Below, piece after piece: positions 11,208-32,000 of a DNA stretch of 32,000 nt (position 1 is its first letter; the number at the start of each line of letters is the position of its first letter). The notes below the pieces were generated by a model that was given only the letters and a program-made list of their open reading frames with translations, was not told where the DNA came from and ran no database searches. Position numbers and translations under genes: made by a program. Location: NCBI RefSeq assembly GCF_009557235.1, contig NZ_CP045650.1, positions 2,070,001-2,102,000 of the forward strand. The letters are read 5' to 3'. This DNA comes from Acinetobacter wanghuae (lineage in GTDB: Bacteria; Pseudomonadota; Gammaproteobacteria; Pseudomonadales; Moraxellaceae).

Positions 11208-11228
11208 TTTTAGCGCGGTTTAATCGCT

Positions 11229-13301
11229 TTATTCTGGTAATTTAAAGTCAGATACAGATTCACGTAATGCATCAGCCATGTTTGCCAACTCAGATACAGA
11301 TCGTGCTGTATCGAAGGTTGCTGTCGTGGTTTGCGAGGTAATTTCTTGTACGACATTCATGGTCGTTGCAATATGACCCGCCGATGCAGACTGCAATTTT
11401 GCCGCATCCGAAATGTTGGCAATCAATTTCGCAAGGTTATTTGATACTGTTTGAATTTCATCCAGTGCGACACCCGCATCCTTAGATAAGTTTGCACCAC
11501 GTACCACTTCAGATGTGGTTTGTTCCATCGACATTACCGCTTCATTGGTATCTGTCTGAATGGTTTTAACCAAGCTTTCAATCTGTTTCGTTGCAGATGC
11601 TGAACGCTCTGCTAGACGCTGTACTTCGTCGGCAACTACCGCGAAACCACGACCTGCTTCACCTGCCATCGATGCCTGAATGGCTGCATTCAATGCCAAG
11701 ATGTTGGTTTGGTCGGCAATATCGTTAATTAAGGCAACGATGTTACCAATCTCTTGAGATGATTCACCCAAACGCTTAATACGTTTTGAGGTTTCTTGAA
11801 TCTGTTCACGAATCGTGTCCATCCCCTCAATAGAGCGGTTTACGACATCAGCACCGTTCGCAGCAATTTGTACTGAACGCTCTGCAACCACCGCTGACTC
11901 TTCAGCATTGGCAGATACTTGGTCAATCGACATTGCCATTTCATTGATTGCGGCAGAGGCACCTGCAATTTCCTGTGCCTGATGTTCAGAGGCTTCGGCA
12001 AGCTGATTGGTAATGCCCTGAGTATTGGCAGTATATTGTGCAACTTCTTGCGATGTTTCGGTAATACGCGAAACTAGGTCACGCAGTTGATCAATCGCAA
12101 AGTTAATCGAATCGGCAATCGCACCAGTAAAGTCTTCCGATACCGTTGCATACGAACGTAAGTCACCATCTGCAAGATCGGCAATCTCATCGAGTAAACG
12201 TAAAATTGCGTTTTGGTTACGGTCATATTCTTCTTGTAAACGACCTACACGTTGTTTATCCGATACGCCACGTAAAGACAGTAATTTGAATACGCAAATC
12301 AAAAAGCCTGTCAGGAATAAGATCAACAGCAATGCTGGAATCGCAGTTTTAAGACCGGTATTGCTTGATAGTTTGTTTAAGTTTTCAAGTAAGGCATCCG
12401 ATTGAGCAAAAATCGAAGCCGATGCTTGGCGTACTTTTACAATTTGTGTGGAGTTTTGCAAAATCGTTGCTGATGCAGATTTTAATACACCATCATATTC
12501 AGATTTAATGCCTTCTAATGATTCGCGTAAGGTTGGATCTGAAATACGATCCACCCCAAGTTCACTTGAACCTGTGAGTTGCGCATTTAAATATGAACCA
12601 AATGTTTCAGTATCTGAGCTAAAGTCATCTGCAGATTCATGAGAGCCATCGGTACCTGTCAGCACCAAGCTAATTGAACGTAAAATACGTTCCGCAATGA
12701 ATACTTGGTTTTTCGCAATCACCACCTGACTCGATGGCATATCTTGACGTGCCATTTGGTCAACCATCAAGTTATATTCCGCCTGAATCCCTGGAATCGC
12801 TTCACCAATGGCAATATTGGTGTCATATAACTGGTTAATAATTTTTTGTTGTGAGGAAATCAAATCAATACTTTTTGATACTTCATTCCATTGTTGATCC
12901 ACAGCTTGAAGTGCATCATTATTGGCATGAATACTTTTTACTGTATTTAAGTTATCCGTAAATGACTTTTGTGATTCAGTCAATTTCTTCATGGCTTCAG
13001 GTGTGCCAGACGCAGTTGCCTCTGTTGCCTGACGTGAAATGGTTTGTGACAACAGACGCAAATCACCCAAGCTACGGGTCAATTCATTGGCACGAGGAAT
13101 AATATAGAAAAGAGACAATAAGATAATGGTCGCCGCAATTAAACAGCCCACTGCGCCATAAATCAGTGGTTTAGATTTTTCACTATCCCCAAATACACGC
13201 GACAATTGATCTGTTTGCGCCTGAATTTTTGCTAAAAAAGCATTGCTGCCTTTACGCGCCCCGCTTTCACCTGCATTTTTCTTTTTAAGCTTAAAGCCCA
13301 T
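11229..13301 (-). CDS. pilJ: Methyl-accepting chemotaxis protein PilJ
   Basis: 690 aa with two TM segments flanking a large periplasmic region. It has the highly conserved MCP signalling hairpin [51 protein letters not shown] and sits in a pilGHI-J-chpA context. Confidence 0.9.
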
Positions 13302-13345
13302 CCAGCCTCTCCCCCGATTACGCCTTTTTTACTTTCGCGCAACAA

Positions 13346-13882
13346 TTAATTTATAAATTTTATAGATGCATTCATGAATTTTGGATTTTGCAACAATTGA
13401 CTGAATAAAAACACATGCCATTGTTGGCTATGTTGATGGAAGAAACCACGACAATAGTCTTGTAGGTTCTCATCCAATTCAGCATTTTTTGAAAAGAAAC
13501 TTTTCTTATTAAAGTGTTGAATCCCCAAAACTTGATCAACCACTAAACCGACATACTGATCATTATGGTTAATACATAATACTTTTTGAGTCGGTGTAAA
13601 TTGGCTCTTGTGACCTGAAACATAATGTGCCAAATCCGACACCGATAAGAGCCTTCCCCGAATATTCGCCAGTCCCACCACCCAAGCTTGAGTATTCGGT
13701 ACTGGCGTATATTTTGGAGGATAGATCACTTCGGATACTTCCCCCAGCGGAGCAACAAAATATTGCCCCATCATCTCAAAAGCAATGCCTGACCATCGGT
13801 TCACTTCATTTTCGTTAGAAACGTAGTTTTTATTACCACGCTTTGCTATACGAAGTAGCTCGATAAATCCATTTGCTGCCAT
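13346..13882 (-). CDS. pilI: CheW-like coupling protein PilI
   Basis: 178 aa. The CheW pattern is YFVAPLGEVSEVI...VPNTQAWVVGLANIRGRLLSVSDL...YVGLVVDQVLGI. It lies between pilH and pilJ. Confidence 0.85.
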   Translation of the reverse strand: MAANGFIELLRIAKRGNKNYVSNENEVNRWSGIAFEMMGQYFVAPLGEVSEVIYPPKYTPVPNTQAWVVGLANIRGRLLSVSDLAHYVSGHKSQFTPTQKVLCINHNDQYVGLVVDQVLGIQHFNKKSFFSKNAELDENLQDYCRGFFHQHSQQWHVFLFSQLLQNPKFMNASIKFIN

Positions 13883-13887
13883 AGCGC

Positions 13888-14256
13888 CTATCCTGCATTG
13901 AGGTGCTGCTTAATTACATCAATTAATTGTTGTTCATCGACTGGCTTCGTTAAGTAATCTGCAGCGCCCTGACGTTTACCCCAAACACGGTCAGTCGCTT
14001 GATCTTTCGTACTTACAATCACAATCGGAATATGTTTAGTGGTTGCGCCTCGTGCAATTTGACGTGTTGCTTGAAAGCCATTCACACCCGGCATCACCAC
14101 ATCCATTAAGACAAGATCAGGTAGTTCCGACTGCGCCATGGTCACACCATCTGCCCCATTCGATGCTTCGACTACCTCAAATCCATGTTTAGTTAAAATC
14201 TCTCTAAAACGGAACGTTTCTGTAGGTGAATCATCTACAATAAGGATACGTGACAT
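13888..14256 (-). CDS. pilH: CheY-like single-domain response regulator PilH
   Basis: 122 aa with receiver motifs ILIVDDS, LVLMDVVMPGVNG and TKP. It is the second gene of the operon. Confidence 0.85.
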   Translation of the reverse strand: MSRILIVDDSPTETFRFREILTKHGFEVVEASNGADGVTMAQSELPDLVLMDVVMPGVNGFQATRQIARGATTKHIPIVIVSTKDQATDRVWGKRQGAADYLTKPVDEQQLIDVIKQHLNAG

Positions 14257-14280
14257 GCTTTTCCCCCAAAAAAAATCAAA

Positions 14281-14664
14281 TTAAGCACTAATATGGTTAC
14301 GGATTGCGTTAAGCAATTCATCTTTACTAAATGGTTTAGTCAAATATTCATCCGAACCCACAACACGACCTTTCGCTTGATCGAATAAACCGTCTTTACT
14401 CGATAGCATAATCACAGGGATATTTTGGTAATTTTGAGAATTTTTGATGAGTGCACACGTTTGATAACCGTCTAAACGTGGCATCATAATATCGACAAAA
14501 ATAATATCTGGACTCGATTCTGCAATTTTTGATAGTGCTTCAAAACCATCCACTGCAGTGACGACTTCACAACCTTCACGCTGAAGAAGAGTTTCCGCTG
14601 TACGACGAATGGTTTTTGAGTCATCAATCACCATGACTTTTAGATTTTGGAATTTATCGTCCAT
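14281..14664 (-). CDS. pilG: CheY-like single-domain response regulator PilG
   Basis: 127 aa with receiver motifs VMVIDDS, IIFVDIMMPRLDG and TKPF. It is the first gene of the operon and has a GAAGGG Shine-Dalgarno. Confidence 0.85.
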   Translation of the reverse strand: MDDKFQNLKVMVIDDSKTIRRTAETLLQREGCEVVTAVDGFEALSKIAESSPDIIFVDIMMPRLDGYQTCALIKNSQNYQNIPVIMLSSKDGLFDQAKGRVVGSDEYLTKPFSKDELLNAIRNHISA

Positions 14665-14945
14665 TTCTTGACCCTTCTCATTTTAAGGACTATTAACAAT
14701 AGCGCTTATAGCATTATTTTATTAAGAATGATGATTATTTTTAACATACCTCACAAGGCATTATCAACGCACATTTTCCACGCAAGTCGACATAAAAGGT
14801 TTTTTTTAACAACAACTTCACATTTTATAATATTCATTGATTTATTTTTGACTTACACTAGTTTTTAATTGAGCGGTTTCAGTCTAATATATCATTATTA
14901 TTACTTTAAAATAAGTAATTTAGTCAACTTTAAATTGGGGTGCCA

Positions 14946-15587
14946 ATGATGAGTCAGTTTGCAGAAAAACTTGCTTGCATTGATAAAAATAAGTATCTAA
15001 GAGGTGTGCTTCTGTTCATCACGTTGACTTTACAGACAACGCTGAGTTACGCAGATGCTCAAAAAAAAGCCAAGTGGTATCGCTATTATGACAGCAAAGG
15101 TGTGGCAAATATCAGCACCAATGTGACACCTAACCATATCCGTTTTGGCTATGAAGCACTCGATCAAAACATGCAAGTGATTCAACGCGCACGCCCCTAT
15201 AATGTCGAAGCTGATATTCGACAAGCACCTCAACGTGCTATTCAGGCACAGCGCAAAGCCGAAGATAGCAAACTAAAACGTGCTTATAATAATAGTCATA
15301 CTGCGACGCAGAAAAAACAGGAAGCACTTACCCAAATTAAAAAACAATTGGTTTTTCAGCAAGACCAACTCAAACAATTACAAGCCGATCGCGTCATGTT
15401 TGTACGTCAAGAACGTGAGTTTGCGCGAAAAGGAAAGACTGCCCCTGAGCACTTAAAGCTTACGCTGCAAACCAACCAAAATAACATTACAAAGCAAAAA
15501 GAAAATATTCAATCTTTACAAAGTCGCTATCGAAATTTAGAAGCCGAATACGACAGAATAATCAGTCGCTTAAAAGCACTCGAATAA
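14946..15587 (+). CDS. DUF4124-domain secreted protein with a C-terminal coiled coil
   Basis: The track starts at GTG 14940; ATG 14946 is more plausible. It has a signal-like segment LLFITLTLQTTLSYA, then KWYRYYDSKGVANIS (the DUF4124 pattern), then a K/Q/E-rich heptad-like tail. Confidence 0.6.
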   Translation: MMSQFAEKLACIDKNKYLRGVLLFITLTLQTTLSYADAQKKAKWYRYYDSKGVANISTNVTPNHIRFGYEALDQNMQVIQRARPYNVEADIRQAPQRAIQAQRKAEDSKLKRAYNNSHTATQKKQEALTQIKKQLVFQQDQLKQLQADRVMFVRQEREFARKGKTAPEHLKLTLQTNQNNITKQKENIQSLQSRYRNLEAEYDRIISRLKALE

Positions 15588-15632: not shown

Positions 15633-16766
15633 ATGCAACTTAAATCGCACACCATGTTTCACCTGCTTCAATCCTCTCGCTTGGCTTTGATTGTCGGAAT
15701 TTTAAGCTTCAATTTTGCCCTCACGGGCTGTGGTCAGAAAGAACCCACTCAAAAACAAGCAGAGCCACAAAATATTGAATTAATTGCCCAAGATTTAGTT
15801 GCAGTTCAATCGGGTGACTCTGTGCAAATGACCGCCTTCACTGGGACGATACGTGCAGTCAATCAAAGCAGCATTCAAGCCCAAGTAAGCGCAACTGCAA
15901 CTAACGTCAATGCACAAGTCGGTGACAAAGTTCAAAAAGGGCAAATCTTACTAAGACTGAATAATCAGGACAATGCAGCACGTTTAGCCCAAGCCCAAGC
16001 CAATAAAGCCTCAGCACAAGCGCAAGCCAACCAAGCGAAATTGATGATGGAACGTAAACTACGTTTACTCAATCAAGGTTTTATTTCCAAAGTTGAATAT
16101 GAACAAAGCCGTGTCGATTACCAAGCACAACTTGAAAATGCCCGCGCCCAACAAGCCAATGTCGATATCGCACTCAAAGCGGATCAAGATGGTCTCATTA
16201 AAAGTCCAATCAGTGGTGTGATCACTGCGCGCCAAGTTGAACCGGGTCAAACCGTTGCAATCGGGCAAACCTTATTTGAAATTGTAGATACCAATCAACT
16301 TGAGATTCAAGCCAAAGTACCAAGCGATATGCAAAGCGCGCTCAGTGTTGGCAATCAAGTGGAATATCAAATTCAGGGCAATCCAAATCGTTTAACTGCG
16401 GTCATTAGCCGAATCTCCCCAATTGCTGATCAAGCCAGTCGTCAAATTGAATTCTTTGCTACGCCAAAAGAAACCTTGAGTTCACTGAGCATTGGTTCAT
16501 TTATTGATGGTAACATCATGAGTTCACAGAAAATTTCGGGACAAATTGTGCCACTCGATCTGGTCAAAAATATTGAGTCACAACCCTATGTGTGGATTGT
16601 GCGTCAAAATAAAATCATGAAAGTTCAAGTTGAACTATTAGAGCAACGCTACAAAGACAATATTGCGGTGGTTAGAGGATTAGAAACAGGCGACCACGTC
16701 AGTCGTCTCGAATTTACCGATGCTGATATCAAAAAAACCGTCACACTTGACTCAAAACAAAAATAA
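15633..16766 (+). CDS. RND efflux periplasmic adaptor (membrane-fusion) lipoprotein
   Basis: 377 aa with lipobox LTGCGQ. An alpha-hairpin region rich in AQAQ coiled coil is followed by the beta-barrel motif PISGVITARQVEPGQTV. It sits directly upstream of the RND permease gene. Confidence 0.85.
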   Translation: MQLKSHTMFHLLQSSRLALIVGILSFNFALTGCGQKEPTQKQAEPQNIELIAQDLVAVQSGDSVQMTAFTGTIRAVNQSSIQAQVSATATNVNAQVGDKVQKGQILLRLNNQDNAARLAQAQANKASAQAQANQAKLMMERKLRLLNQGFISKVEYEQSRVDYQAQLENARAQQANVDIALKADQDGLIKSPISGVITARQVEPGQTVAIGQTLFEIVDTNQLEIQAKVPSDMQSALSVGNQVEYQIQGNPNRLTAVISRISPIADQASRQIEFFATPKETLSSLSIGSFIDGNIMSSQKISGQIVPLDLVKNIESQPYVWIVRQNKIMKVQVELLEQRYKDNIAVVRGLETGDHVSRLEFTDADIKKTVTLDSKQK

Positions 16767-16784
16767 TCAAACAGGATCTTTGAT

Positions 16785-19700
16785 ATGTGGTTGACTCGAA
16801 TCAGTGTGAAGTACCCAGTCTTTACCATCATGATGATGTTTTGTTTGATGGTACTCGGTTTAGCATCATGGCAACGTATGGGCGTGGAAGAATTCCCCGA
16901 TGTGGATTTTCCTTTCGTCGTGATTTATACCAATTATCCGGGTGCATCGCCTGAAACAGTTGAATCTGAAATTACCAAAAAGCTTGAAGATCAGATCAAT
17001 ACCATTTCCGGTTTAAAACAAGTCATTTCACAATCGAGTGAAGGCTTGTCGATGATTACCACCGAATTTAATTTGGATGTCTCATCGACCACCGCAGCAC
17101 AAGACATTCGCGATAAAATTTCATCAGTAACCGCAGAATTTCGCGATGAAATTCAAGATCCCATTGTCGAGCGTTACGATCCGACCTCAAATGCAATTAT
17201 GTCGATTGTATTTGAATCCAATAATATGGATCTTAAATCACTCAGCTCTTATTTGGATCAACGTGTGGTTCCGCAACTGAGAACGGTTGCAGGCGTCGGT
17301 ACAGTGAATTTATTGGGTGATGCACAACGGCAAATCCGCATCGAAGTCGATCCACAAAAATTACAAGCCTACGGCATTGGCATTGACAGTGTCATTAACA
17401 CCCTTAAATCTGAAAATATTGAAGTTCCGGGCGGTACGCTAAAATCAAACAATTCGGAACTGGTGATTGAGATTAATTCTAAAGTCCAACATCCGCTTGG
17501 TTTTGGTGATTTAATTGTTGCCAATAAAAGTGGCGCACCTATTTTCCTCAAACAAGTAGCAAATGTAAAAGACACTCAAGCCGAACTTGAGTCTGCTGCC
17601 TTTTTAGATGGCAAAGCAGCTGTTGCGATTGATATTTTAAGAAGCTCAGATGCCAATGTTATTGAAGTAGTCGATCGCACCTATAAAACCTTAGACACCG
17701 TCAAAAGCCAACTTCCGCAAGGCACATCACTAAAAGTGGTCGTGGATTCATCTAAAAGTATTCGTGGCAGTATTGCCGATGTGGCGCGCACCATCGTTGA
17801 AGGTGCTGTGCTTGCCGTACTGATTGTACTGTTATTCTTAGGCTCATTCCGTTCTACAGCAATTACTGGATTAACGCTGCCGATTGCCCTACTTGGCACG
17901 CTCACTTTTATTTGGGCATTTGGTTTTACCATCAACATGATGACCTTACTTGCCTTATCACTCAGTATTGGTCTGCTGATTGATGATGCAATTGTGGTGC
18001 GAGAAAATATTGTGCGTCATGCCGATATGGGCAAAGACCATACGACCGCAGCCCTAGATGGGACGAAAGAAATTGGACTTGCTGTTTTAGCAACAACCTT
18101 GACGATTGTTGCTGTGTTCTTACCTGTGGCATTTATGGGCGGGATTATTGGGCGTTTCTTCTATCAATTTGGGGTGACGGTCAGTGCTGCCGTACTGATT
18201 TCCATGTTTGTCAGCTTTACCCTTGACCCGATGCTCTCTGCACATTGGGCAGAAAAGAAACCGGATCCCAATAAAAAGCCGAGTGCTTTAAAACGCTTCT
18301 TTAACTTTATCTCGAGCAAACTGGATAACTTAAGCCACGTCTACGAAAAGCTGCTTAAACTTGCACTTCGTTTCCGTTTCATCACGATTGTGATTGCGGT
18401 GGCATCACTCTTTGGTGCGCTGGGTTTATCCAAAATGATTGGAACAGAGTTTGTGCCTGTACCCGATAAAGGTGAAATTCGAATTAAGTTTGAAACCCCT
18501 GTCGATGCAACCTTGGAATATTCGCAAGCTAAGCTGCAACAAGTTGAACAGGTGATTCGTCAACATCCAGATACCCGTGGCACTTATGGTGTCATTAATG
18601 GATTGACTGATCGTGGTAAAAATCATGTGAGTATTCGTGTGACCGTGACCCCGCGTACTGAGCGTGAAAAAAGCTTAAGTGATATTAACAACGAATTCCG
18701 TGAACGTCTTAAAAGTATTGCCGGCATCAGCGTGACTTCAGTTGCCTCTGCGGATGAAACCGTATCGGGCGGTCAAAAACCGATTATGATTTCAATTAAA
18801 GGTCCTGATCTAAACGAGCTGCAAAAAATCTCAGATCGCTTTATGCTGGAAATGGCAAAAATTGATGGCGTGGTTGATTTAGAAACCTCACTCAAAGAAC
18901 CAAAACCAACACTAGATATGCAAATTAATCGGGTGTTGGCGAGTGATTTAGGTCTATCCGTCAATCAAATTGCCAATGCGGTACGCCCACTCATTGCGGG
19001 CGATGATGTCACCACTTGGCAAGATCCAAAAGGTGAAACCTACGATGTCAATCTGCGCTTAGCAGAAAGTAAACGTACTTTACCGAGTGATTTGCAAAAT
19101 ATGTATGTGACATCATCTAAAACAGATGCAAATGGTCAACCTATTCTCACACCACTTGCTAGCGTAGCAAAATTTGAAGAAAAACTGGGTGCTTCGCAAA
19201 TTAACCGTCGTGACCTTGCCCGTGAAGTACTCATTAAAGCCAATACCTCTGGACGTCCTTCAGGTGACATCGGTACGGATATTAGTGCGATGCAAGAAAC
19301 CTTTGAGCTACCTACAGGTTATAGCTTTGATACACAAGGCTCGAATGCAGACATGGCAGAATCGGCAGGCTATGCTTTAACGGCAATTACCCTGTCGATT
19401 GTATTTATTTATATTGTGCTCGGTTCACAGTTCAATAGCTTTATCCACCCTGCATCGATTATGGCATCACTGCCACTGTCCTTAATTGGTGTGTTCTTGG
19501 CATTGTTCTTGTTTAACTCCACCATGAACTTATTCTCGATTATCGGGATTATTATGTTAATGGGGCTTGTGACCAAGAATGCGATTCTCCTCATCGACTT
19601 TATTAAAAAAGCGATGGATCGTGGCGAAGATCGTTATGATGCCATTATTGCAGCGGGTAAAACGCGACTCCGTCCGATTTTAATGACCACAAGTGCGATG

Positions 19701-19892
19701 GTGATGGGCATGGTGCCGCTGTCTTTAGGTTTAGGCGAAGGCGGCGAACAAAGCGCACCGATGGCACATGCCGTGATTGGCGGTGTGATTACCTCGACCC
19801 TACTGACCTTGGTGGTGGTTCCTGTGATCTTTACCTATTTAGATGACTTTAAGAATTTTATGTCGCGCCAAGCCCGTAAAATCATGTCATAA
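16785..19892 (+). CDS. RND efflux permease (AcrB/AcrD/AcrF family)
   Basis: 1035 aa with a 12-TM architecture and two large periplasmic loops. The TM4 region [17 protein letters not shown] and the N-terminus [14 protein letters not shown] are typical of the family. Confidence 0.9.
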
Positions 19893-19988: not shown

Positions 19989-21704
19989 ATGCGCGCGAGT
20001 CGCTTTTTATTTGCAACGTTAAGAGAAACCCCAAACGATGCTGAAGTTATTTCTCATCAGCTCATGCTTCGTGCCGGTATGATTCGTAAATTGGCTTCAG
20101 GTTTATACACTTGGCTGCCGATGGGTGTACGCGTTTTAAATAAAGTTGAAGCGATTATTCGCGAAGAAATGGATCGTGTTGGCTCACTTCAAGTATTGAT
20201 GCCTGTGACTCAGCCTGCATCACTATGGGAAGAATCAGGTCGTTTTGTGCAATATGGTCCTGAACTATTACGTTTTAAAGATCGTCACAGCAATGACTTT
20301 GTACTTGGCCCAACACACGAAGAAGTAATTACTGACCTTGCACGTAATGAGCTTAAAAGCTACAAGCAATTACCTGCAAACTTCTACCAAGTTCAAACTA
20401 AATTCCGTGATGAAATTCGTCCACGTTTTGGTGTGATGCGTTCACGTGAATTCGTAATGAAAGATGCGTATTCTTTCCATATCGATCAAGAATCTCTACA
20501 AAAAACCTATGACGATATGTATGCGGCGTACTGCAAAATCTTTACTCGTTTAGGTTTGAACTTCCGTCCTGTGCAAGCCGATACCGGTTCAATCGGTGGT
20601 TCAGGTTCACACGAATTCCACGTTTTAGCATCAAGCGGTGAAGATGATATTGCATTCTCAACTGAATCTGACTATGCAGCGAACGTTGAAATGGCAGAAG
20701 CAGTACTTGTAGGTGAGCGTGCAGCTCCAACACAAGAACTCAAAGTTGTAGATACGCCAAATCAAAAAACCATCGCAGAAGTTTCAAACTTCTTAGGGAC
20801 AGATGCAGCTCAATCTGTTAAAGCACTCCTTGTACAAGGTGTTGCGGAAGAAGGTAAAGATGCTCCTGTCGTGGCGTTATTCTTACGTGGTGACCACGAA
20901 CTCAATGAAATTAAAGCTGAAAAACATCCTTTAATTGCAGCGCCACTTGCATTTGCAACTGAAGAACAGCTTGCAAAGCTTGGCTTAACTGCAGGTTTCG
21001 TGGGTCCTCAAGGTCTTGTTGAAAAAGGTGTGATAGTAATTGTTGACCGTGCTGCATCTGTGCTTTCAGACTTTGTTGCCGGTGCAAATATTGCTCACAA
21101 ACACGCAACCGGTGTCAACTGGGAACGTGATGCACAGTTCACTGAAGTTTACGACTTACGTAATGTGGTAGAAGGCGATCCTTCTCCAGATGGTAAAGGC
21201 ACTCTACAAATTAAACGTGGTATTGAAGTCGGTCATATCTTCCAATTGGGGCAAAAATACTCTGAAGCTTTAGGCTGTAAAGTCTTGGGTAAAGATGGTA
21301 AACCAACTGTAGTCACTATGGGTTGTTACGGCATTGGTGTAACACGTGTGGTAGCGTCTGCCATTGAACAAAACTTTGACGAAAAAGGCATTATTTGGCC
21401 GACCTCGATTACACCGTTTGAAGTTGCGATTGTGCCAATGAATGCACACAAGTCACCACGTACTGTAGAAGCAGCAGAAAGCTTATATGCTGAACTTCAA
21501 GCTGCAGGTTGTGACGTGTTACTGGATGACCGTGATGAACGTCCAGGCGTAAAATTCTCTGACCTTGAAATTACGGGTATTCCACACCGTATTGTGATTG
21601 GTGAAAAAGGTTTGGATGCCGGTACGTTTGAATATAAAGGTCGCCGTGATGCTGAATCAGTCAATATTTCGAAAGCAGAATTATTGGCGAAAATTGCTAA
21701 ATAA
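19989..21704 (+). CDS. proS: Proline--tRNA ligase
   Basis: 571 aa. The N-terminus [40 protein letters not shown] and class II motifs ([34 protein letters not shown]) indicate bacterial-type ProRS with an editing insertion. Confidence 0.95.
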
Positions 21705-21716
21705 TTTGATTTAGAT

Positions 21717-21747
21717 GCAAAAAATCCCGCGACATGCGGGATTTTTT
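21717..21747. terminator. Bidirectional terminator between proS and the four-gene operon
   Basis: AAAAAATCCCGCGACATGCGGGATTTTTT is a hairpin flanked by an A-run and a T-run between convergent genes. Confidence 0.8.
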
Positions 21748-21764: not shown

Positions 21765-23090
21765 TTAGCAGAATTTAAGACCGCCGAAGCAATTGGATTT
21801 AAAATTTTGACCTTGCAGTGTTAAATTAACTAGAGGAAAATCTAAAGATGTTGTAAGCGGTATATTTCCAACACCAAGCGTGCTTCCTCCAATACAGCCT
21901 GATAGCAGATTACCGCAAGCTCGAGGATTATCAGTTAAATTTTTACTGATACCGGCAATGGTCTGCTGTAATACAGCATTTGAAATGTCTACATTTGTTG
22001 TTGGGCTTAAACTTCCTAAATCAACCTCATCCTCCATTGCAAGCCACCAGCCTTTATTGGCCCCAGCTGAAGCACCTGGCCATAAAAGGTTAACCTGCTG
22101 CAAAGACAAGGAAGCTGCATTATTTAAATATAAGGCATGGATTAACCCCAAATCTTGGGAAACCGAAATATCAGTTTTTAACCCTGTAATATTACCAGTT
22201 ACAACTTTATCTAAATTCAAAAGACCTAAGACTTGGGCTGTTAAATCTCCATAGAAGTCTAATTGGCCAACAGTGCCTGACCCCTTAAGATCGACTTTGG
22301 TCATTCTTGAGCCCGATACTTGAGTAGAATTGATAGTAAATGGCGCATAGGCTGATTTTAAAATAAGATCGTATCCATTTGACTCATAACTAATTTCAAG
22401 ACCTGAAGAACAAGAGTCACCTATTAAACATCCTGAGACTTTACCTTTAATAGGGTAATTGAATGTATTTTTGTCATAAATCATATGTCGTTCATTAGTA
22501 ATTGCTGTTCCAGAAGCTTCTTTGGTTTTCATATAACCACTAAAAGATTTAATTCCATTCGGCGTTGAACTATTCTCCGTACCAAGTGTCATTAGACCAG
22601 CAATTTTTTCAGCGCTTACTCTAAAACCCAAAACTTCTCTAGTTGAAGCTAAAGTAGGATTTTTAATCGCAAATTGTATAAAAGGGTTTGTAATAACCGC
22701 CGATGTAGCAGCACGCTCATCAGATGTATAATCGCTTTTTATTGTTCCATCTGCATTTTTCACTAAGCCACTTAATGCAATATTATCAATATTGATATCA
22801 CACGCCTGAGATGATTTCGCTGCTGCATTTGCATAGCCGCAACCCAACTGTAGACTCTTAATATTAGCGTTCAGCTCCATTTCTGCATCTAGACCAAGCT
22901 TATAAAAACCTATATTGGATTGATCGTAACTAATTCCCATCGAGTCCGTACTATTCGTCCCTGATTGATACTGCAAATTTAATAAAGCCTGCCCATCGAC
23001 TTTGGACAATGATTGATCATCTAAAGCAATCATCCCATACGAATGAGAAACTGCAAACATGCTTAAAGCAGCTAATACTAAAATTTTCAT
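21765..23090 (-). CDS. Secreted protein of unknown function, 4th gene of the operon (possibly FilE-like)
   Basis: 441 aa with signal peptide MKILVLAALSMFAVSHSYG, then ALDDQSLSKVDGQ. It is rich in G/S/T/N/L. Eight Cys form four short pairs (C84/C97, C221/C227, C392/C399, C434/C441), and the last residue is Cys. A Shine-Dalgarno AGGGA lies 7 nt upstream of the ATG. Confidence 0.6.
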   Translation of the reverse strand: MKILVLAALSMFAVSHSYGMIALDDQSLSKVDGQALLNLQYQSGTNSTDSMGISYDQSNIGFYKLGLDAEMELNANIKSLQLGCGYANAAAKSSQACDINIDNIALSGLVKNADGTIKSDYTSDERAATSAVITNPFIQFAIKNPTLASTREVLGFRVSAEKIAGLMTLGTENSSTPNGIKSFSGYMKTKEASGTAITNERHMIYDKNTFNYPIKGKVSGCLIGDSCSSGLEISYESNGYDLILKSAYAPFTINSTQVSGSRMTKVDLKGSGTVGQLDFYGDLTAQVLGLLNLDKVVTGNITGLKTDISVSQDLGLIHALYLNNAASLSLQQVNLLWPGASAGANKGWWLAMEDEVDLGSLSPTTNVDISNAVLQQTIAGISKNLTDNPRACGNLLSGCIGGSTLGVGNIPLTTSLDFPLVNLTLQGQNFKSNCFGGLKFC

Positions 23091-23117
23091 ATTAATTTCC
23101 CTGATTTTTAATTATTT

Positions 23118-25466
23118 TTAACGTGGCTTAATGCCAAGCGTGCTGCGCATTGATCCTCCAGTAAACGCAATATCTCCAATTTTCTGCATTTTCCCTACGC
23201 TAGGTGACAGTGCAACCTCTGCAGTAAAAGCTTTTCCAATAGTACTTTCATTTCCTAAACGATTAAAACTAACTTGACTATCTAAAACAGCTGTATCTTT
23301 TTTCATACGTACACGCGCTTCAGCTCCAACATCACCCTGCATCTTATTTAAGTTAATACTCGATACATTCACTGAATCTTCATTACTGATGCTGATATAG
23401 CTTCCAAGATTTTCTGCATCATTCTTTTCATCAGCTAATAGAGGTGTAAACTGAAAATTTGCCTTTAGCTTCAAATAATTGGTATCAGGTGTTGCTGAAG
23501 CACTTTCAATACCTGGAATAATAAAGAGTTTGCCATCGCCGTCTAATTTAAATGCAATACTAGCAAGTACATCATCTTTACGACCGAAATTATCGATTGG
23601 TACGATTTTCTTACCGCATTCACCGCCACAATTATATAGAGACCCTGGAAGTTGCCCTATTGCAATCTCAGCTTTTGCAGCAAATAGTAAGTTATCTGCT
23701 TTAATATATATTCCATTATCCTCAAAACCGATGACACCATTGGCTTTAATATAAGAGTCAATATTTCTCAGACCTGCATAATAGTTCACTTCTTCACCTT
23801 GAAGGACTTTACCACTTGTATCCTTCAAAGGCACACCATCACTGTCTTTTAATGTACGCTTTTCACCATCTAAAACCAATAAGGATGTAGTGTAGGAATT
23901 TCCAGTTTCACTATCATAATAATATCCATCCGTAGACATAGCTAAGTCAAAACCTAATCCACTCTTTTCATTTCCTAATTTATTGGTATATTTTTTTTCA
24001 AATAACCCTAAATTGGCATTCAAATTATATATAGGTATACCGATACCCCATGTACCTTCTGGGGCATTATTCTCAGGTAAAGAATTATCAGAAATAAATC
24101 TTGCTTTACGAGCAATTGCTTGGAAATCCATACCACGCACAGCAATAAGTGTCATAGTTTGAGGATCTATAGTGGGTGAGGGATTATAAATTATTTTATT
24201 ATCAGGTAATTGTAATATATTTTTAATCTGATCATTTACAGCGAATCCTAAATTATCCGTGTTTACTGTATTTATATAAATATCACCAAAATTTATATAA
24301 GCATTAGCTGTACTTAAAGGTGCACCTTCAGCTTCAGATGTTCGTACATTCAAGCGAGTGAGATTAGAGAATTCGATAGCATAACTACCTGTACCCGTAT
24401 GGCCTAACTCAAAAGTAGTGGGCGTTTTTCCACTTACTGTTGTTTTATCTTTATCTGCGCGCGTAAAATCTGCAGACATCCCCAAATGCAAACCACCGCC
24501 TTGAGTAAAATCGTAGCCTTCATTGTCAGCAATTGTACTTTTTACACCACCATTAATAACATGGAATGATGAAGCACCTTCTTGCTTAGCATTGAGCATA
24601 ATCTTACCATTGGTCAAAGCACCAGATGCACCAAGACGGATTAAATTTCCTTGTGTTCCATCTTCACCATAACGCAGATCAATATTTACTCCTGGCTTTG
24701 TCTTTCCTGCGAACTCATTATCTTTTACACGATTTAATTCAACAAAATTCCCGGCATCACGTGTTTCCAAAATAATCCCATTATCAGGATCAATGAACAT
24801 GTATCCATCGGCACTCAGATTAAAATTAAAATCTTTCAGTGTTAGATTCTGCCCATTCTGACCATATGAAATACTAGCATTTTGTAGTCTAAAGTCTAAA
24901 TGGGCGCTATCATTCTGATTAAATAGTCCATTTTTTGTTTTTAAATAAACTTCAAGAGGAGATGTTGTTGAAATACTCAAGCTACCCAAATTCTGTGGTT
25001 TACTTGAATTTTTATAAATAATTTTTCCTGTCTTATCATCTCTTCTAATTTCACCACTGATATCTCTTTCAATAATACATTCAGATGGACATAACATAAT
25101 CTGAGATGCAGCTAAAACAAAAGGTGAAATACTTGCTGAAAACTCTATACCAACACCATCTCTACTTTCACTGATTTCAGTTCTTCCCACATCAAAATCT
25201 ATTTTAGATAGAATTGATGTGTTACCAGCATTCGCACTGATTTGAACATCATGCAGACCCAATTTAATTGGAGTTTTTCCATTTTCCGAATAATCTACCC
25301 AATTTAATTGATCTATATTCGCTCTCGACATTTCATGAGTAATACTAATTCCATCCTGACCAGTGACCGAACTAAGTGTTTGATCAGACATTACTTGCAG
25401 TGCATAACTTTGATTGGCTGCACAGATACAAGCTACGAGAAAATTTAATTTTATTATTGCTCTCAC
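23118..25466 (-). CDS. Large secreted or outer-membrane-associated protein of unknown function, 3rd gene of the operon
   Basis: 782 aa with a GTG start preceded by AAGGA/GGAG. The signal peptide ends ...ANQSYA and is followed by VMSDQTLSSVTGQDG. It is N/G/S/T-rich and beta-like, with mature Cys only in two C-x3-C pairs (CPSEC, CGGEC). Confidence 0.6.
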   Translation of the reverse strand: MRAIIKLNFLVACICAANQSYALQVMSDQTLSSVTGQDGISITHEMSRANIDQLNWVDYSENGKTPIKLGLHDVQISANAGNTSILSKIDFDVGRTEISESRDGVGIEFSASISPFVLAASQIMLCPSECIIERDISGEIRRDDKTGKIIYKNSSKPQNLGSLSISTTSPLEVYLKTKNGLFNQNDSAHLDFRLQNASISYGQNGQNLTLKDFNFNLSADGYMFIDPDNGIILETRDAGNFVELNRVKDNEFAGKTKPGVNIDLRYGEDGTQGNLIRLGASGALTNGKIMLNAKQEGASSFHVINGGVKSTIADNEGYDFTQGGGLHLGMSADFTRADKDKTTVSGKTPTTFELGHTGTGSYAIEFSNLTRLNVRTSEAEGAPLSTANAYINFGDIYINTVNTDNLGFAVNDQIKNILQLPDNKIIYNPSPTIDPQTMTLIAVRGMDFQAIARKARFISDNSLPENNAPEGTWGIGIPIYNLNANLGLFEKKYTNKLGNEKSGLGFDLAMSTDGYYYDSETGNSYTTSLLVLDGEKRTLKDSDGVPLKDTSGKVLQGEEVNYYAGLRNIDSYIKANGVIGFEDNGIYIKADNLLFAAKAEIAIGQLPGSLYNCGGECGKKIVPIDNFGRKDDVLASIAFKLDGDGKLFIIPGIESASATPDTNYLKLKANFQFTPLLADEKNDAENLGSYISISNEDSVNVSSINLNKMQGDVGAEARVRMKKDTAVLDSQVSFNRLGNESTIGKAFTAEVALSPSVGKMQKIGDIAFTGGSMRSTLGIKPR

Positions 25467-25494
25467 TCCAATTTCCTTTTGAAAGTATCAATAA

Positions 25495-26235
25495 TTAGCA
25501 ACGCGCATTCGCATTGCCTGTGCAATTAAAACCAAAAATCTTTAAATCACCGGACATATGCAAATTCCCATGCATATTAACGCCCATAAATCCTTTTTCA
25601 CGCCCTTTATCAAAAGTTCCTATAGAAAGGGTTTGTCCATCATCCGCATAAGTTCCATCTGTCTTCTTATAGAACGTCTTAAAAGTATCTTCATACTTAG
25701 ACAGCTTCATATAGCCTTTATCTTTTTCTGTTTTCCCTCCATTTTCATCAGTTTCTATACTTAAAGTTTCAAATCCTAAATTTCTTATTTTTATAGGGTT
25801 TGCATCACTAAATCTAACATTTAAAGCCGTCTTAGGAGTTAAGGCTGGATCAGCATAAACTATTGTAGAGCCTTCAATAGCAAAACTATCAATTTGCACT
25901 GTTCCTTGAATCTTTTTAAAAACTAGCCATTTCTGATTTTCATTTTCATCTTTATGATTATTTGGCGAAAATGCTAATCGGCACTGAATATCATTTTTAC
26001 AGCTATATCCATAATAAACTTCCTTATCGCCTTGATTATTTACCCCCCAAATGTCTGTTAAAGACATTTCGTTCGCGTAGCGGTGATTTAAAGATAGTGT
26101 CCAGCTTAGATCAGCGCCGCCTTGACCATAAGTATTTTGCATTTGAGATGAATCTAAATTTGTTAATGTAGCATGCGCTATGCCAGTTAAAAAAAATAAT
26201 CCAGTAAAATAAGATTTATTGATCATTATCTTCAT
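25495..26235 (-). CDS. Small secreted protein of unknown function, 2nd gene of the operon
   Basis: 246 aa from ATG 26235, or 243 aa from ATG 26226, which has better spacing to the AAGGA that overlaps the upstream stop (TAAGGATGAAGATAATG). The signal peptide ends GIAHA and is followed by NLDSSQMQNTYGQGG. It has two Cys pairs (C-x5-C and a C-terminal C-x7-C). Confidence 0.6.
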   Translation of the reverse strand: MKIMINKSYFTGLFFLTGIAHATLTNLDSSQMQNTYGQGGADLSWTLSLNHRYANEMSLTDIWGVNNQGDKEVYYGYSCKNDIQCRLAFSPNNHKDENENQKWLVFKKIQGTVQIDSFAIEGSTIVYADPALTPKTALNVRFSDANPIKIRNLGFETLSIETDENGGKTEKDKGYMKLSKYEDTFKTFYKKTDGTYADDGQTLSIGTFDKGREKGFMGVNMHGNLHMSGDLKIFGFNCTGNANARC

Positions 26236-26237
26236 CC

Positions 26238-28223
26238 TTATAATCCTGTAGTTTTAATCTTTAAATGCTGAATAAGAACCCCATCTATCGCAACAGAACC
26301 AAGATTAACTGGACTACCTGATAAGTTTTTAAAAACGATACCTGTTGCATTGCTTCCTGTTCCTGCATTAATTCGCTTAGTAGATGCATCATATGCTGCT
26401 GTACCAATTGTAATACTGCTATGAGTTGCCGCACTGCTCTGATATGTTGCACCGCCAATAGAAATATTTTTACCGCACTCATATACACTGCATGTTGAAC
26501 CTGAAATCTCATATATGCCTGTAGTACCAGTTTCAGGATTTTTGACTGAAAGAGAAGCCTTTCCTGTACTAGAGTCAACTGTGATATTTTTATTAGCACT
26601 ATCAGTGTCTGAGTAATAATTATAAATTTTAGTATATATTTCAGGAATATTTGGGATTCTTGTTATTTCTAAAATAATATTATTGGTATCAGACCCAATA
26701 ATAAATGGCTGATACATATTACCCAGTACTAAGTTAATATTAGGACTGTACAAATATAATCCTTCATTCTTATTAAACAGTGGTGCTGTTCCACCATTTA
26801 ATGCTGGCGTAGCAGCTGCTGGCGTAACTGCAGGCTCCTGTTCAGCGGTACTGATACGAATTGCTTTATTATTATTAAGCGCAGTAAAGCTAACATTGCT
26901 TGGAGTTAAGTCTGTATTTAGCCTTAAAATACTTGCCATACCTAAAGTCGAATTATACTGACTGTTCTCGGCATTCTTTGTTTCCATTGTTTGGAACAAT
27001 CTCAATTGCGTACCGTCAATTGACAATCCATTTGCTACAAATTGAAGCCTTAATCTCGAGTTTGCAGACAAATCACTGCTATCTATCGGAGCTCCTGTTG
27101 CTTCATCTACTAAATAATCAGAATTCCAGCTCCTTGAAAATAAATCAGCCCAGAATCCCATTTTAAACACATTAGGAGATAATGTTGAAAGCAATGGAGC
27201 CTCAAGAGCTAAATACCCTACATCTCCTGGTGTATTCTCAAATTGGCGTACGCCTTTTTCTGTACCCGCCCTAAAAAGCCAAGGATTTTCTGCGGTCCCC
27301 CAATTAAATCCACTATTACTGAATCTTTGATTTAAATCACTATTCGACGCTGAAAGCGCAAGACCGTAAATAAATACATCAGCTTTATTCTTAGTGTTTC
27401 CAAAAGCAGCGACAGCCTTTGTACGCAAACTTGACCGGCTCTCAGCTGTATCCAAAACATTTTTAACATCACTATCAACTTGCTGTGCAGCATAATTCTG
27501 CATAAGCAAGCTTGTTCTTGCATTGGCTAAGAAATCAGCTTCATTATTAATTTTTGCTGTGACTCTATTTTCTATTTCGTTGATCCATGCTGTTGTCTTC
27601 AAATCTGCATTTGCATCTGCTATAGCGGCAGCTTCCTTTCTTTCTTTACTCCATGTTCCATAACTCCATACATTGCTGTATTTATTATCCAGATAATATT
27701 GTATACGCTGGGAATATACCGTATCTGGAGTGGCTCTAGATGTCTCAAAATTTTTAAAATCCGTATAGCGTAAATTCCTTACCTCAGCTTTAGCCAAAAC
27801 CAGCTGCTGATTATAGATATTTGTTTTTTGAGCAGCATTATTCAAAGAAGAGTTATAAACATTCGCTTTAGAAGTCGCATATTGCGCTTGATACGCTTTT
27901 TGATATTCCTGTTCATATAATTTTGAAAATTCTTTTTGATAACTACCACCCGTTGGAATAATACGAATAAAGCCAGTGTCATATGCTTCAGGTTTCTTAT
28001 AAGGATCTATAGCGTTGTAAGTTGAATTTTTAGAAATATCATTCGGTCCTTGAAATACCATCTTGAAGTTATCTAAAACAAGTGCAACACCTTCACCGGT
28101 TGTATCAGAAAGTGAATGATCAGAGAGTTCCTGCATAGCATGTGCAGTAGGGAGCATCATTAAGCCAATGGTTAAAGCTAAATAACGTCTACGAAAACGA
28201 TGAAAACGTACCAATTCTGTCAT
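26238..28223 (-). CDS. Secreted protein of unknown function, 1st gene of the operon (possibly FilF-like)
   Basis: 661 aa with a strong Shine-Dalgarno GAAGGAAG. The basic n-region RFHRFRRRY is followed by LALTIGLMMLPTAHA, then ELSDHSLSDTTGEG. A Y/Q/A/K-rich helical segment (aa about 95-260) precedes a G/S/T/N-rich region. There is a single Cys pair (C-x4-C). Confidence 0.6.
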   Translation of the reverse strand: MTELVRFHRFRRRYLALTIGLMMLPTAHAMQELSDHSLSDTTGEGVALVLDNFKMVFQGPNDISKNSTYNAIDPYKKPEAYDTGFIRIIPTGGSYQKEFSKLYEQEYQKAYQAQYATSKANVYNSSLNNAAQKTNIYNQQLVLAKAEVRNLRYTDFKNFETSRATPDTVYSQRIQYYLDNKYSNVWSYGTWSKERKEAAAIADANADLKTTAWINEIENRVTAKINNEADFLANARTSLLMQNYAAQQVDSDVKNVLDTAESRSSLRTKAVAAFGNTKNKADVFIYGLALSASNSDLNQRFSNSGFNWGTAENPWLFRAGTEKGVRQFENTPGDVGYLALEAPLLSTLSPNVFKMGFWADLFSRSWNSDYLVDEATGAPIDSSDLSANSRLRLQFVANGLSIDGTQLRLFQTMETKNAENSQYNSTLGMASILRLNTDLTPSNVSFTALNNNKAIRISTAEQEPAVTPAAATPALNGGTAPLFNKNEGLYLYSPNINLVLGNMYQPFIIGSDTNNIILEITRIPNIPEIYTKIYNYYSDTDSANKNITVDSSTGKASLSVKNPETGTTGIYEISGSTCSVYECGKNISIGGATYQSSAATHSSITIGTAAYDASTKRINAGTGSNATGIVFKNLSGSPVNLGSVAIDGVLIQHLKIKTTGL

Positions 28224-28410
28224 TTCTAACTTCCTTCTTTTATGATGCTCCGCATCTCTATCCTGCTAGCTTCCCAGCCTTCGCCATTCAATTTATACGA
28301 CGCATTCCGCATCTATTTTTATAGATATACAGCATCTATTATGCTTATTTTTAATCCAGATACCAAAGTCAACCGACTAAAAAACACAAGTTTCCGATGA
28401 ATGAAATCTC

Positions 28411-28441
28411 AAAAAAAGAAACGGGGCAAAATGCCCCGTTT
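28411..28441 (-). terminator. Rho-independent terminator of dcd, insulating it from the downstream operon
   Basis: The minus strand reads AAACGGGGCATTTTGCCCCGTTTCTTTTTTT. Confidence 0.85.
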
Positions 28442-28460
28442 ATTCAATATCTTAACAATT

Positions 28461-29030
28461 TTATGCTTTTGGCAAAGTGACGCCTGTTTGACCTTGGTAT
28501 TTACCACCACGGTCTTTATACGAGGTTTCACATACTTCATCTGATTCGAAGAACAGCATTTGTGCCACGCCTTCACCCGCGTAGATACGCGCAGGCAAGT
28601 TGGTTGTATTTGAGAACTCCAATGTCACATGACCTTCCCATTCAGGTTCAAGCGGTGTGACGTTCACAATAATACCGCAACGTGCATAAGTCGATTTACC
28701 CAAGCAAACCGTTAATACATTACGTGGAATGCGGAAGTATTCAACCGTACGTGCTAAAGCAAATGAGTTTGGTGGAATAATACACACATCAGATTCGATA
28801 TCGATAAAGCTTTTATCATCAAAGTTTTTCGGGTCAACAATCACCGAATGAACATTGGTAAACACTTTAAATTCGCGTGCGCAACGTACATCATAGCCAT
28901 AGCTTGATACGCCATAAGAAATGAGTTTTTCACCATTTTCATCGAGGCGAACTTGGTTTTCTGCATACGGTTCAATCATGCCGTGTTTTTCGCTCATTTC
29001 GCGAATCCAACGATCAGACTTAATAGCCAT
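28461..29030 (-). CDS. dcd: dCTP deaminase
   Basis: 189 aa. The sequence [21 protein letters not shown]...[33 protein letters not shown] fits the dUTPase-superfamily Dcd signature. Confidence 0.9.
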
Positions 29031-31228: not shown

Positions 31229-32000
31229 TTAGGCTTTGACGGTACTCATGAAACTGACCGCAGAGAACAACCAAATAAATAAGATAAAACTACGTGCTTG
31301 GTTAAAGTTTTCTACATCTGTGCCATGCAGCATATTATGACGCGTCATGGTCACATTCGAGCTTGAGTCCATTTTATAAGCCGCAAGTTCGGCAAAGTAC
31401 GGATTCAATTCAATCGCAATTTTTGACTTATGCCACAAGCTTTTAATCTCGTTTGCTTTTAAACCCGGCACAATTTTATAAACATCGACAAACTTGGTAC
31501 CGTTCTGTTTTAAGAAGCCTGTCTTGAGTAAAATATCAGTCAAGATGCCTTCAAGCTGTGCATAGACATTTGGAATACAACCCGTATAGAAGCCAAGTTT
31601 GTACATTTTCAAGCTTTCAAGCAGCACCAAACGGCGCTTGGCTTTGATCTCTTCATCAATTTCCAAGGCATCAAAAGCTTTGAGTATTTCGGTTTGAAAA
31701 TATTCACTGTTAATCATATCGAGCAAGTCAAATTGCTCAATAGCTTCAAATTGATGGATCATCGGCCAAAAATGCATGAGGTTTAATGCATCATTGGCAA
31801 ACTTAGCCCCAATCGGTTGATCAAGTTCATCGGCAAGCACTTGGAAGTAGGCATCTTGCGCTGATAAATCCATTAAAGTTTTGATGAGCAGCGTATGTTC
31901 GTCGGCCGAGATCTCTTCAAGATATTGTGCGGCATCTTTTAAAATTTGCTGACCCAATTGTTTTTGACTCGCGGCATTTTGTTTAATACGCGTGACAGGT
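31229..32000 (-). CDS. Hypothetical protein (5' end outside window)
   Basis: The track starts at a TTG at 31957, but the frame stays open to the window edge (...PVTRIKQNAASQKQ upstream), so the gene probably begins beyond nt 32000. I recognise no family. Confidence 0.5.
   Translation of the reverse strand, partial: PVTRIKQNAASQKQLGQQILKDAAQYLEEISADEHTLLIKTLMDLSAQDAYFQVLADELDQPIGAKFANDALNLMHFWPMIHQFEAIEQFDLLDMINSEYFQTEILKAFDALEIDEEIKAKRRLVLLESLKMYKLGFYTGCIPNVYAQLEGILTDILLKTGFLKQNGTKFVDVYKIVPGLKANEIKSLWHKSKIAIELNPYFAELAAYKMDSSSNVTMTRHNMLHGTDVENFNQARSFILFIWLFSAVSFMSTVKA

Follow-up and report, generated by a model that had tools for sequence, protein, structure and literature searches.

A block of four minus-strand genes, here called P1 to P4, lies between proS and dcd in Acinetobacter wanghuae, in a 32,000-nucleotide (nt) stretch of DNA (NCBI RefSeq assembly GCF_009557235.1, contig NZ_CP045650.1, positions 2,070,001 to 2,102,000 of the forward strand) that is referred to below as the window. 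All four products carry a Sec-type signal peptide followed directly by a fixed 15-residue leader ending in G-Q/E, which is the same as the leader of the fimbrial protein FilA (Pfam family DUF6160, PF19657), and the N-terminal domain of P3 is also homologous to FilA. On these sequence grounds, the operon appears to be related to the Fil fimbrial system, without having been described before, and is defined by the FilA-type leader; the shared leader and the FilA-like domain of P3 tie it to that system as likely cargo and not as a copy. Surface structures of Acinetobacter drive adhesion, biofilm formation, and hospital persistence, and are vaccine targets. A. baumannii and dozens of further species of the genus carry the block, yet in the literature searched neither an experimental study of it nor mechanistic work on DUF6160 or Fil assembly was found. 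The four genes, taken from the list of open reading frames (ORFs), are as follows, with protein lengths in amino acids (aa):

26238-28223, minus strand: P1, 661 aa
25495-26235, minus strand: P2, 246 aa
23118-25466, minus strand: P3, 782 aa, GTG start, a DUF6160 protein by Pfam
21765-23090, minus strand: P4, 441 aa

The N-termini of P1-P4 are basic, then hydrophobic, and then small-x-small (often Y-A or H-A), which is the pattern of the Sec-type signal peptides that a preliminary description of the window, made from the sequence, had assigned to them. The class III signal of type IV pilins (G-FTLIE motif) is absent, the N-termini being classical Sec signals. In line with the same description, which had called the products rich in G, S, T, and N and noted that none ends in an aromatic residue, G+S+T+N accounts for 33-35% of each protein, and the C-terminal residues of P1, P2, P3, and P4 are L, C, R, and C. 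Close-range Cys pairs are present in all four proteins and conserved among orthologues, as expected if the proteins fold outside the cytoplasm. What was absent from that account was the FilA/DUF6160 leader in all four proteins, together with the FilA-like N-terminal domain of P3. The leaders, placed by orthologue alignment and by the leader pattern and numbered from -15 to -1, are located as follows:

28092-28136, minus strand: P1 leader, residues 30-44, MQELSDHSLSDTTGE
26122-26166, minus strand: P2 leader, residues 24-38, LTNLDSSQMQNTYGQ
25356-25400, minus strand: P3 leader, residues 23-37, LQVMSDQTLSSVTGQ
22989-23033, minus strand: P4 leader, residues 20-34, MIALDDQSLSKVDGQ

The corresponding leader of FilA is MQSMDDAALSAATGQ. 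DUF6160 matches the N-terminus of all four proteins, with 44.7 bits for P3, above the gathering cut-off of 27; for P1, P2, and P4, the match lies at the corresponding place but reaches only 13.3, 19.0, and 16.6 bits, below that cut-off, so that only the leader is common to them. In NCBIfam, only a weak N-terminal match to the FilA model was obtained. A total of 133 distinct leaders was tabulated with a degenerate pattern fixing positions -15, -12, -7, -2, and -1, and these fixed positions show only how widely the pattern applies (143 of the 155 proteins scanned). In this table, Ala occupies -16, the signal-peptidase site, in 73% of cases, hydrophobic residues stand at -15, -12, and -7, Gly at -2 is found in 99%, and Q or E at -1 in all sequences collected. 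Position -4, which is not fixed by the pattern, is L, M, I, V, or F in 63%, with mostly T or A in the remainder, and an acidic residue occurs near -8 to -11.

A looser pattern gave 165 matches in 2,021 ORFs from 45 sources, against 12.9 +/- 3.3 in shuffled sequences; 162 of the matches stood at the N-terminal end of a block gene or of FilA, and no ORF of another kind among the 2,021 had one. Across 44 loci, each block gene and each FilA has the pattern at its N-terminus. The enrichment is partly circular, since the pattern was derived from these same sequences, and the absence from other ORFs is the useful part. A narrow hidden Markov model (HMM) built from five FilA leaders was too specific and did not detect P1-P4. 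By profile-profile comparison, the four proteins share only their N-terminal 40-80 residues; paralogy of the block proteins was accordingly rejected, as they are unrelated beyond the leader region.

The relationship of P3 to FilA extends further. P3 consists of a FilA-like N-terminal domain reaching to about residue 126, followed by a large all-beta body, and ends in GGSMRSTLGIKPR (in the family, ...TGGxMRSTLGITPR). When the FilA and P3 profiles were compared, hhalign returned a probability of 98.5% and an E value of 3.8e-15 over FilA 8-132 and P3 9-126, which makes about 90 N-terminal residues of mature P3 homologous to FilA. Against the NCBIfam model pilus_FilA, P3 scores 40.6 bits (cut-off 220), and its 782 aa compare with about 280 aa for FilA. 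An AlphaFold model of P3 built with 88 diverse sequences reached a predicted local distance difference test (pLDDT) score of 88.7 and a predicted template-modelling score (pTM) of 0.85, while 18 close homologues only gave a pLDDT of 42. The model is all-beta with many hairpins of 16-21 residues; confidence is low only across residues 18-37, the leader region, and straight after the G-Q, at D38, the first strand begins. Foldseek searches with this confident 782-aa model returned nothing significant from the PDB (best probability 0.09, TM-score <=0.13) or from BFVD, and PDB sequence-profile searches were empty for all four block families and for FilA.

No assembly or secretion machinery accompanies these genes. 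As the preliminary description had maintained for the operon and its surroundings, usher, chaperone, secretin, ATPase, and sortase domains are missing from the Pfam results for the window ORFs. C39 peptidases and FadL-type proteins are missing there too, and no recognisable machinery was found within 10 kb in about 40 related loci. The block does resemble chaperone-usher pili in its compact operon, in its Sec-exported products of similar size, and in a suspected fibre role, but it lacks an usher, a PapD-like chaperone, and any detectable pilin fold or sequence family. An ordinary chaperone-usher operon, in which the 782-aa protein would be the usher and the 246-aa protein the chaperone, is matched by the sizes (about 800 and 240 aa) and the operon layout and by nothing else. 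No Usher or PapD-type Pfam match appears even at E <= 1, the P3 model has TM-scores of 0.07-0.09 to the PapC and FimD ushers, the PDB profile searches mentioned above are empty, and P3 carries a FilA-like domain instead. Put to the profile searches and structural comparison that the preliminary description had proposed for it, this explanation is refuted as far as the tools reach and retains next to no credibility. The descriptive part of the first observation is confirmed: this is a real, machinery-less operon of exported proteins.

The fil operon itself has a different make-up. In A. baumannii, it encodes FilA (289 aa), a C39 peptidase (279 aa), a 398-aa protein (PMC4751259, Suppl. Table S3), a 556-aa outer-membrane transporter-family protein (FadL-type), FilE (430 aa), and the lipoprotein FilF (641 aa) (PMC4751259). 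FilA has been experimentally identified as a fimbrial subunit in Acinetobacter sp. Tol 5 (PMC3498257, PMC11784438). Four Alcanivorax loci contain a fil-type operon as well, comprising FilA (DUF6160), Peptidase_C39, a 352-aa protein, a Toluene_X/FadL protein, and two more genes. Compared with their A. baumannii counterparts, the FilB, FilC, and FilD proteins of Alcanivorax show 44-50% identity. The Tol 5 FilA subunit is said to have been identified by Edman degradation, and triacylglycerol is reported to induce the Fil fimbriae of that strain. In fil operons, filA is the only leader-bearing gene and adjoins the gene for the C39 peptidase, which in both Alcanivorax and A. baumannii has a single N-terminal hydrophobic anchor and no ATP-binding cassette (ABC) transporter part; the catalytic domain of such an anchored peptidase could therefore meet Sec-exported FilA in the periplasm.

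With Fil fimbriae the block shares the DUF6160 leader in all four proteins, the FilA-homologous residues of P3, an additional FilA-like gene in some block variants, the genus and, in A. baumannii, the genome. Unlike the fil operon, it contains none of FilB, FilC, FilD, FilE, and FilF, nor do any of these occur within 10 kb; the fil operon in turn offers nothing that corresponds to P1, P2, P4, or the greater part of P3, and the block occupies a different chromosomal site (the dcd locus). Searches by tblastn with FilB-F of Alcanivorax and A. baumannii gave zero matches in the window or in about 40 block loci. A candidate identity with FilF was rejected, as A. baumannii FilF (translated from the supplement of PMC4751259) is unlike P1-P4, the rest of the window, and any block locus. 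By these comparisons, P1-P4 are not FilF, FilB, or FilE, which corrects a tempting mis-annotation. The preliminary description had brought in the labels FilF, FilA, FilB, and FilE, given to proteins of similar size in some Acinetobacter annotations; that equivalence is not supported, although its proposal of a non-canonical envelope operon was right in spirit.

The explanation that we favour, with somewhat less than even confidence, sees P1-P4 as structural components of a surface fibre or envelope assembly of the Fil type, sorted and possibly matured by machinery encoded elsewhere. Since the tag is present on all four proteins and no machinery lies nearby, the block proteins would be cargo that uses the machinery in trans. 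P1-P4 would be exported by Sec, and the signal-peptidase cut would leave the 15-residue propeptide. Fil-type machinery, which in fil operons would be the anchored C39 peptidase FilB, FilC, and the FadL-family outer-membrane protein FilD, might then recognise the propeptide in the periplasm and perhaps remove it after G-Q/E, so that a new N-terminus would be exposed at the start of the first beta strand and become available for assembly. The leader would thus serve as a common sorting and maturation tag for all four proteins, which could be, for example, accessory, tip, or anchor parts, P3 being a FilA-like module with a large extra body. The evidence that fil genes and the block occur in the same genome comes from A. 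baumannii, of which the records examined contain both the block and a fil operon; in CP040048.1, FilF lies about 127 kb from the block. The genetic link is to fimbriae that are poorly understood and whose assembly by a C39 peptidase and a FadL-type outer-membrane protein would differ from every pilus pathway characterised so far.

With regard to the leader, double-glycine leaders of class II bacteriocins, ComC, and colicin V have hydrophobic residues at -15, -12, -7, and -4 and Gly at -2, and are cut by C39 peptidases. The block leader is like them in its length of about 15 residues, in its hydrophobic residues at -15, -12, -7, and -4, in its acidic residue at -8 to -11, and in its Gly at -2, and a further likeness is the linkage of a leader-bearing gene to a C39 peptidase gene in fil operons. 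Since the leader resembles a C39 cleavage site, the mature N-termini become predictable. On the other hand, it follows a Sec signal peptide instead of standing at the extreme N-terminus, the cargo consists of large proteins (246-782 aa), and the Fil peptidase, unlike double-glycine exporters, is not fused to an ABC exporter. In one distant block, locus L034 of an uncultured Pseudomonadota, the P2 leader matched the TIGR01847 model (bacteriocin_sig) with 13.9 bits and an E value of 0.067 at model positions 1-14 of 15, below the cut-off of 15.7.

Several observations weigh against dependence of the block on Fil-type machinery or against a fibre role. The residue at -1 is Q or E, not the G, A, or S accepted by known C39 peptidases, and the window's own leaders gave no match to double-glycine models including TIGR01847. 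The FilA match of P1, P2, and P4 is confined to the leader, and the P3 model is unlike any known pilin. In A. baumannii VB1190 (locus L044, CP040048.1 613243-634186), the fil operon has decayed, with a stop codon inside filB and an insertion sequence disrupting filD, while the block ORFs are intact. In the whole-cell proteome of Tol 5, FilA, FilC, FilD, and FilE were detected with 5-10 peptides each (PMC11784438, Table S1), and from proS (BCX75381) to dcd (BCX75390) only BCX75383, a protein of 820 aa, was detected, with one peptide (PMC11784438, Table S1). By position and size, BCX75383 is probably the P3 orthologue. This single peptide from the block region suggests that the block is nearly silent under those conditions, which fits the elaborate control region upstream of P1.

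The intact block of VB1190 would also suit a second explanation, possible but in our view unlikely, namely that P1-P4 form a self-contained envelope complex that needs no fil genes, with P2 or P3 as an outer-membrane platform and the leader as a tag for assembly or chaperoning. The unit of four genes does not vary and, in about 40 loci, is unlinked to fil genes; the C-terminus of P2 vaguely recalls an outer-membrane beta-signal (...KIFSYNC...C in Moraxellaceae, ...NAYIFGF in L034), one P2 has a weak match to the outer-membrane protein LpxR (E 0.059), and the L034 block adjoins a gene for a tetratricopeptide repeat (TPR) outer-membrane beta-barrel protein as well as genes for an extracytoplasmic function (ECF) sigma/anti-sigma pair. 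However, the LpxR match is far below the cut-off, and no window protein has an aromatic last residue. P3 is not a classical outer-membrane barrel either, as its strands have no lipid-facing hydrophobic side, its Trp content is 0.3%, and its Foldseek TM-scores to outer-membrane barrels are 0.06-0.13. Such a complex would also leave unexplained why FilA has the same leader beside a C39 peptidase.

A third explanation, which we consider improbable, sees P1-P4 as enzymes or nutrient-binding proteins that are soluble in the periplasm or secreted, for instance by type II secretion, with the leader as no more than a conserved structural N-terminus. The proteins have Sec signals and no membrane anchors, a tryptophan-halogenase-like gene adjoins the block in two loci, and the label 'heme utilization protein' is attached to some P3 orthologues of A. 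baumannii and A. venetianus, but it has no experimental basis in the literature searched and is misleading; the other annotations of block proteins are only 'hypothetical' or 'DUF6160'. No Pfam, NCBIfam, or PDB-profile match to an enzyme, hemophore, or binding protein was obtained, and no TonB-dependent receptor or heme genes are found near the block (Pfam, window ORFs). It is also hard to explain by fold alone why one 15-residue tag should occur on four otherwise unrelated proteins.

Other fibre systems offer partial parallels to the Fil-type assembly that we favour. In the Fap system, subunits are exported by Sec and handled by the periplasmic C39-type protease FapD and the outer-membrane barrel FapF, and in curli, Sec-exported CsgA has an N-terminal targeting segment after the signal peptide. 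Neither system shows sequence similarity to the block, which has an unrelated leader, lacks Q/N-rich amyloid repeats, and contains nothing like the FapF or CsgG genes. The type V pili of Bacteroidota are made of lipoprotein subunits that become assembly-competent when an Arg/Lys-specific protease removes an N-terminal segment; they share with the present proposal the idea that N-terminal processing enables assembly, though there is no sequence relation. A more far-reaching proposal, speculative and on balance doubtful, is that the DUF6160 leader marks a new two-step export route of Gram-negative bacteria, in which the Sec signal precedes a periplasmic propeptide of the double-glycine-like kind; an anchored C39 peptidase standing alone would remove this propeptide, and the subunits would then cross or assemble through an outer-membrane protein of the FadL family. 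In that case, Fil-type fibres would form a class of surface filament of their own, and the block would supply a second set of cargo, namely a tip, anchor, or sheath complex around a protein whose fold lacks a solved relative, under an undescribed leader RNA.

The conservation of the block was examined in one genome per species, and the P3 family was found in 33 Acinetobacter species. The gene order mrp ... dcd-P1-P2-P3-P4, then proS on the opposite strand, holds in all 33 Acinetobacter loci. Exactly four ORFs lie between dcd and proS in 30 of 30 clean loci, and three further loci have one disrupted gene. The occurrence of the same four genes in the same order in all 30 clean loci argues that the block is not a chance run of ORFs, and this answers the neighbourhood survey proposed in the preliminary description with an invariant four-gene unit. 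Compared with those of the window, block proteins are 32-68% identical between species and flanking genes 77-99%; such faster evolution of the block than of its flanks is expected of envelope or surface proteins. The G+C content of the block is 33-38%, against 41-44% for its surroundings.

More than 40 Moraxellaceae loci, A. baumannii included, carry the block. Profile searches recovered distant relatives of P3 with 26-37% identity, and the P3 family is small (106 cluster representatives out of 1.84 billion at E <= 0.001). In Alkanindiges, the arrangement is mrp-dcd followed by genes for 669, 225, 801, and 497 aa, and in an uncultured Moraxellaceae genome the four-gene block adjoins tig-clpPX-lon. 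A. venetianus also holds the block. In A. baumannii, the order is dcd, a P4-family gene (492 aa), P1 (677 aa), P2 (241 aa), P3 (816 aa), and a FilA-like gene (317 aa); an extra FilA-like gene is found in the block of both A. baumannii and A. venetianus. In the type strain A. johnsonii CIP 64.6 (locus L020, 10559-11584), P3 is interrupted by a 341-aa transposase gene (HTH_38 + rve) and the block is inactivated; the splitting of P3 by this insertion-sequence transposase indicates that the block is dispensable in culture. No within-species hypervariability of P3 was observed among 16 A. johnsonii proteins (97.4-99.9% identity).

Some variant loci are worth recording. The block of locus L034 (3436-6492, minus strand) is rearranged to P1-P2-P4-P3 and divergent from the genes for the ECF sigma factor, a zf-HC2 anti-sigma factor, and the TPR plus outer-membrane beta-barrel protein; no other locus has a candidate for a dedicated regulator or an outer-membrane partner. 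Loci L039 (3568-6691) and L042 (13899-16994) have an extra P4-family paralogue, about 510 aa long, which keeps the leader and the terminal NC...FC loop. Together with a tryptophan-halogenase-family flavoprotein gene, it forms a pair that flanks the block, on one side or the other, in A. venetianus and one metagenome contig. The A. baumannii block was seen in records of chromosome size that are entered as plasmids. Five such PLSDB records (CP040048.1, CP035931.1, NZ_CP064203.1, NZ_CP077849.1, and NZ_CP104448.1) measure 0.66-4.1 Mb, carry the housekeeping genes dcd, apbC, ffh, and smc, and are mislabelled chromosomes or chromosome fragments.

The flanking genes and the control region comprise the following features:

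28461-29030, minus strand: dcd, flank upstream of P1 (Pfam DCD)
28419-28441, minus strand: dcd terminator, 10-bp stem, from the terminator scan; insulates the operon from upstream transcription
28391-28405, minus strand: 15-nt box TTCATTCATCGGAAA, just after the dcd terminator, a candidate regulator site
28338-28366, minus strand: promoter-like site TTGGTA, 17 nt, CATAAT (scan and alignment)
28224-28332, minus strand: 5' untranslated leader, a three-helix RNA (covariance model match, 31 bits)
28244-28256, minus strand: invariant hairpin GATGC-GGA-GCATC inside the 5' leader RNA
21717-21747, no strand assigned: bidirectional terminator hairpin AAAAAATCCCGC-GACAT-GCGGGATTTTTT between converging proS and P4, read from the sequence
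19989-21704, plus strand: proS, flank, convergent with P4

The gaps within the block are 2, 28, and 27 nt, and the junction of the P1 stop and the P2 start reads TAAGGATG. The strand, lengths, and gaps given in the preliminary description match the ORF list exactly, and GenBank entries QGA11677, QGA11675, and QGA11674 are identical to three of the four products. Its location of the block between proS and dcd, with terminators on both sides, holds as well, the hairpin at 21717-21747 being seen by reading the sequence and not in the terminator list of the scan, and the block as its own transcription unit is supported.

Of the 33 Acinetobacter dcd-proS block loci, 30 have the 15-nt box without a single change, with one copy per locus, and all 30 loci in the alignment keep the CATAAT -10 element. 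A metagenome scan for the box was uninformative on its regulon, since almost all matches were due to chance and only 2 of 120 loci were block-like. The 5' leader is about 110 nt long and has three helices, two of which covary across species. A covariance model built from 13 sequences found this RNA in more than 35 loci, the window included, and no Rfam family scored above threshold for it. In the alignment, 96% of cells pair, compared with 30-45% when the partners are slid; both-side changes occur in 12 of 17 pairs, and 0 of 500 shuffles reached the observed values, although the alignment was fitted to the covariance model, which favours structure. On a plain MAFFT alignment, RNAalifold gave the invariant hairpin only, the other helices having emerged from the covariance-model alignment. 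It is possible that the upstream region comprises a new cis-regulatory RNA plus an operator, and expression is probably under tight control by the conserved promoter box and the structured 5' leader RNA, features that could show when the operon switches on.

As for the individual proteins, P1 is composed of a signal peptide, the leader, a variable Tyr-periodic insert at about residues 95-280, and a conserved C-terminal domain that ends invariantly in ...IDGVLIQHLKIKTTGL (...IQHLKIKTTGL in orthologues); Pfam gave nothing for P1 beyond the weak N-terminal DUF6160 match. The insert (27380-27940, minus strand) has Tyr at every fourth residue (LYEQEYQKAYQAQY...) and is probably helical; it is present in the 660-700-aa forms and missing in the 485-515-aa forms of other species. 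P2 has two conserved Cys pairs after the leader and ends in ...KIFGFNCTGNANARC (...IFSYNC-x7-C in orthologues), and no Pfam or NCBIfam family other than the weak DUF6160 match was assigned to it. P4 ends in ...SNCFGGLKFC, a terminal Cys loop kept in all orthologues, and falls into allele classes with about 35%, 45%, and 65% identity to the P4 of the window. A C-terminal FilA-like hairpin motif (LGNVxIxG...), noticed by eye in P1 and P3, was dropped, as an HMM of the FilA C-terminus missed it among the 2,021 ORFs.

The other ORFs of the window with Pfam assignments, besides proS and dcd, are pilG/pilH/pilI/pilJ/chpA (6469-14664), a resistance-nodulation-division (RND) efflux pair (15633-19892), and apbC/mrp. 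Three ORFs have no Pfam family above the cut-off, namely 6007-6465 (minus strand, 152 aa), 14940-15587 (plus strand, 215 aa), and 31229-31957 (minus strand, 242 aa). The region 6469-14664 (minus strand) holds a complete set of Pil-Chp chemosensory genes, which serve to control type IV pili, located 7 kb from the operon with the RND pair and proS in between. It encodes two single-domain response regulators, a CheW protein, a methyl-accepting chemotaxis protein (MCP), and a 1531-aa ChpA-like kinase with multiple histidine phosphotransfer (Hpt) domains, and the Tol 5 protein list shows the same Pil-Chp neighbourhood.

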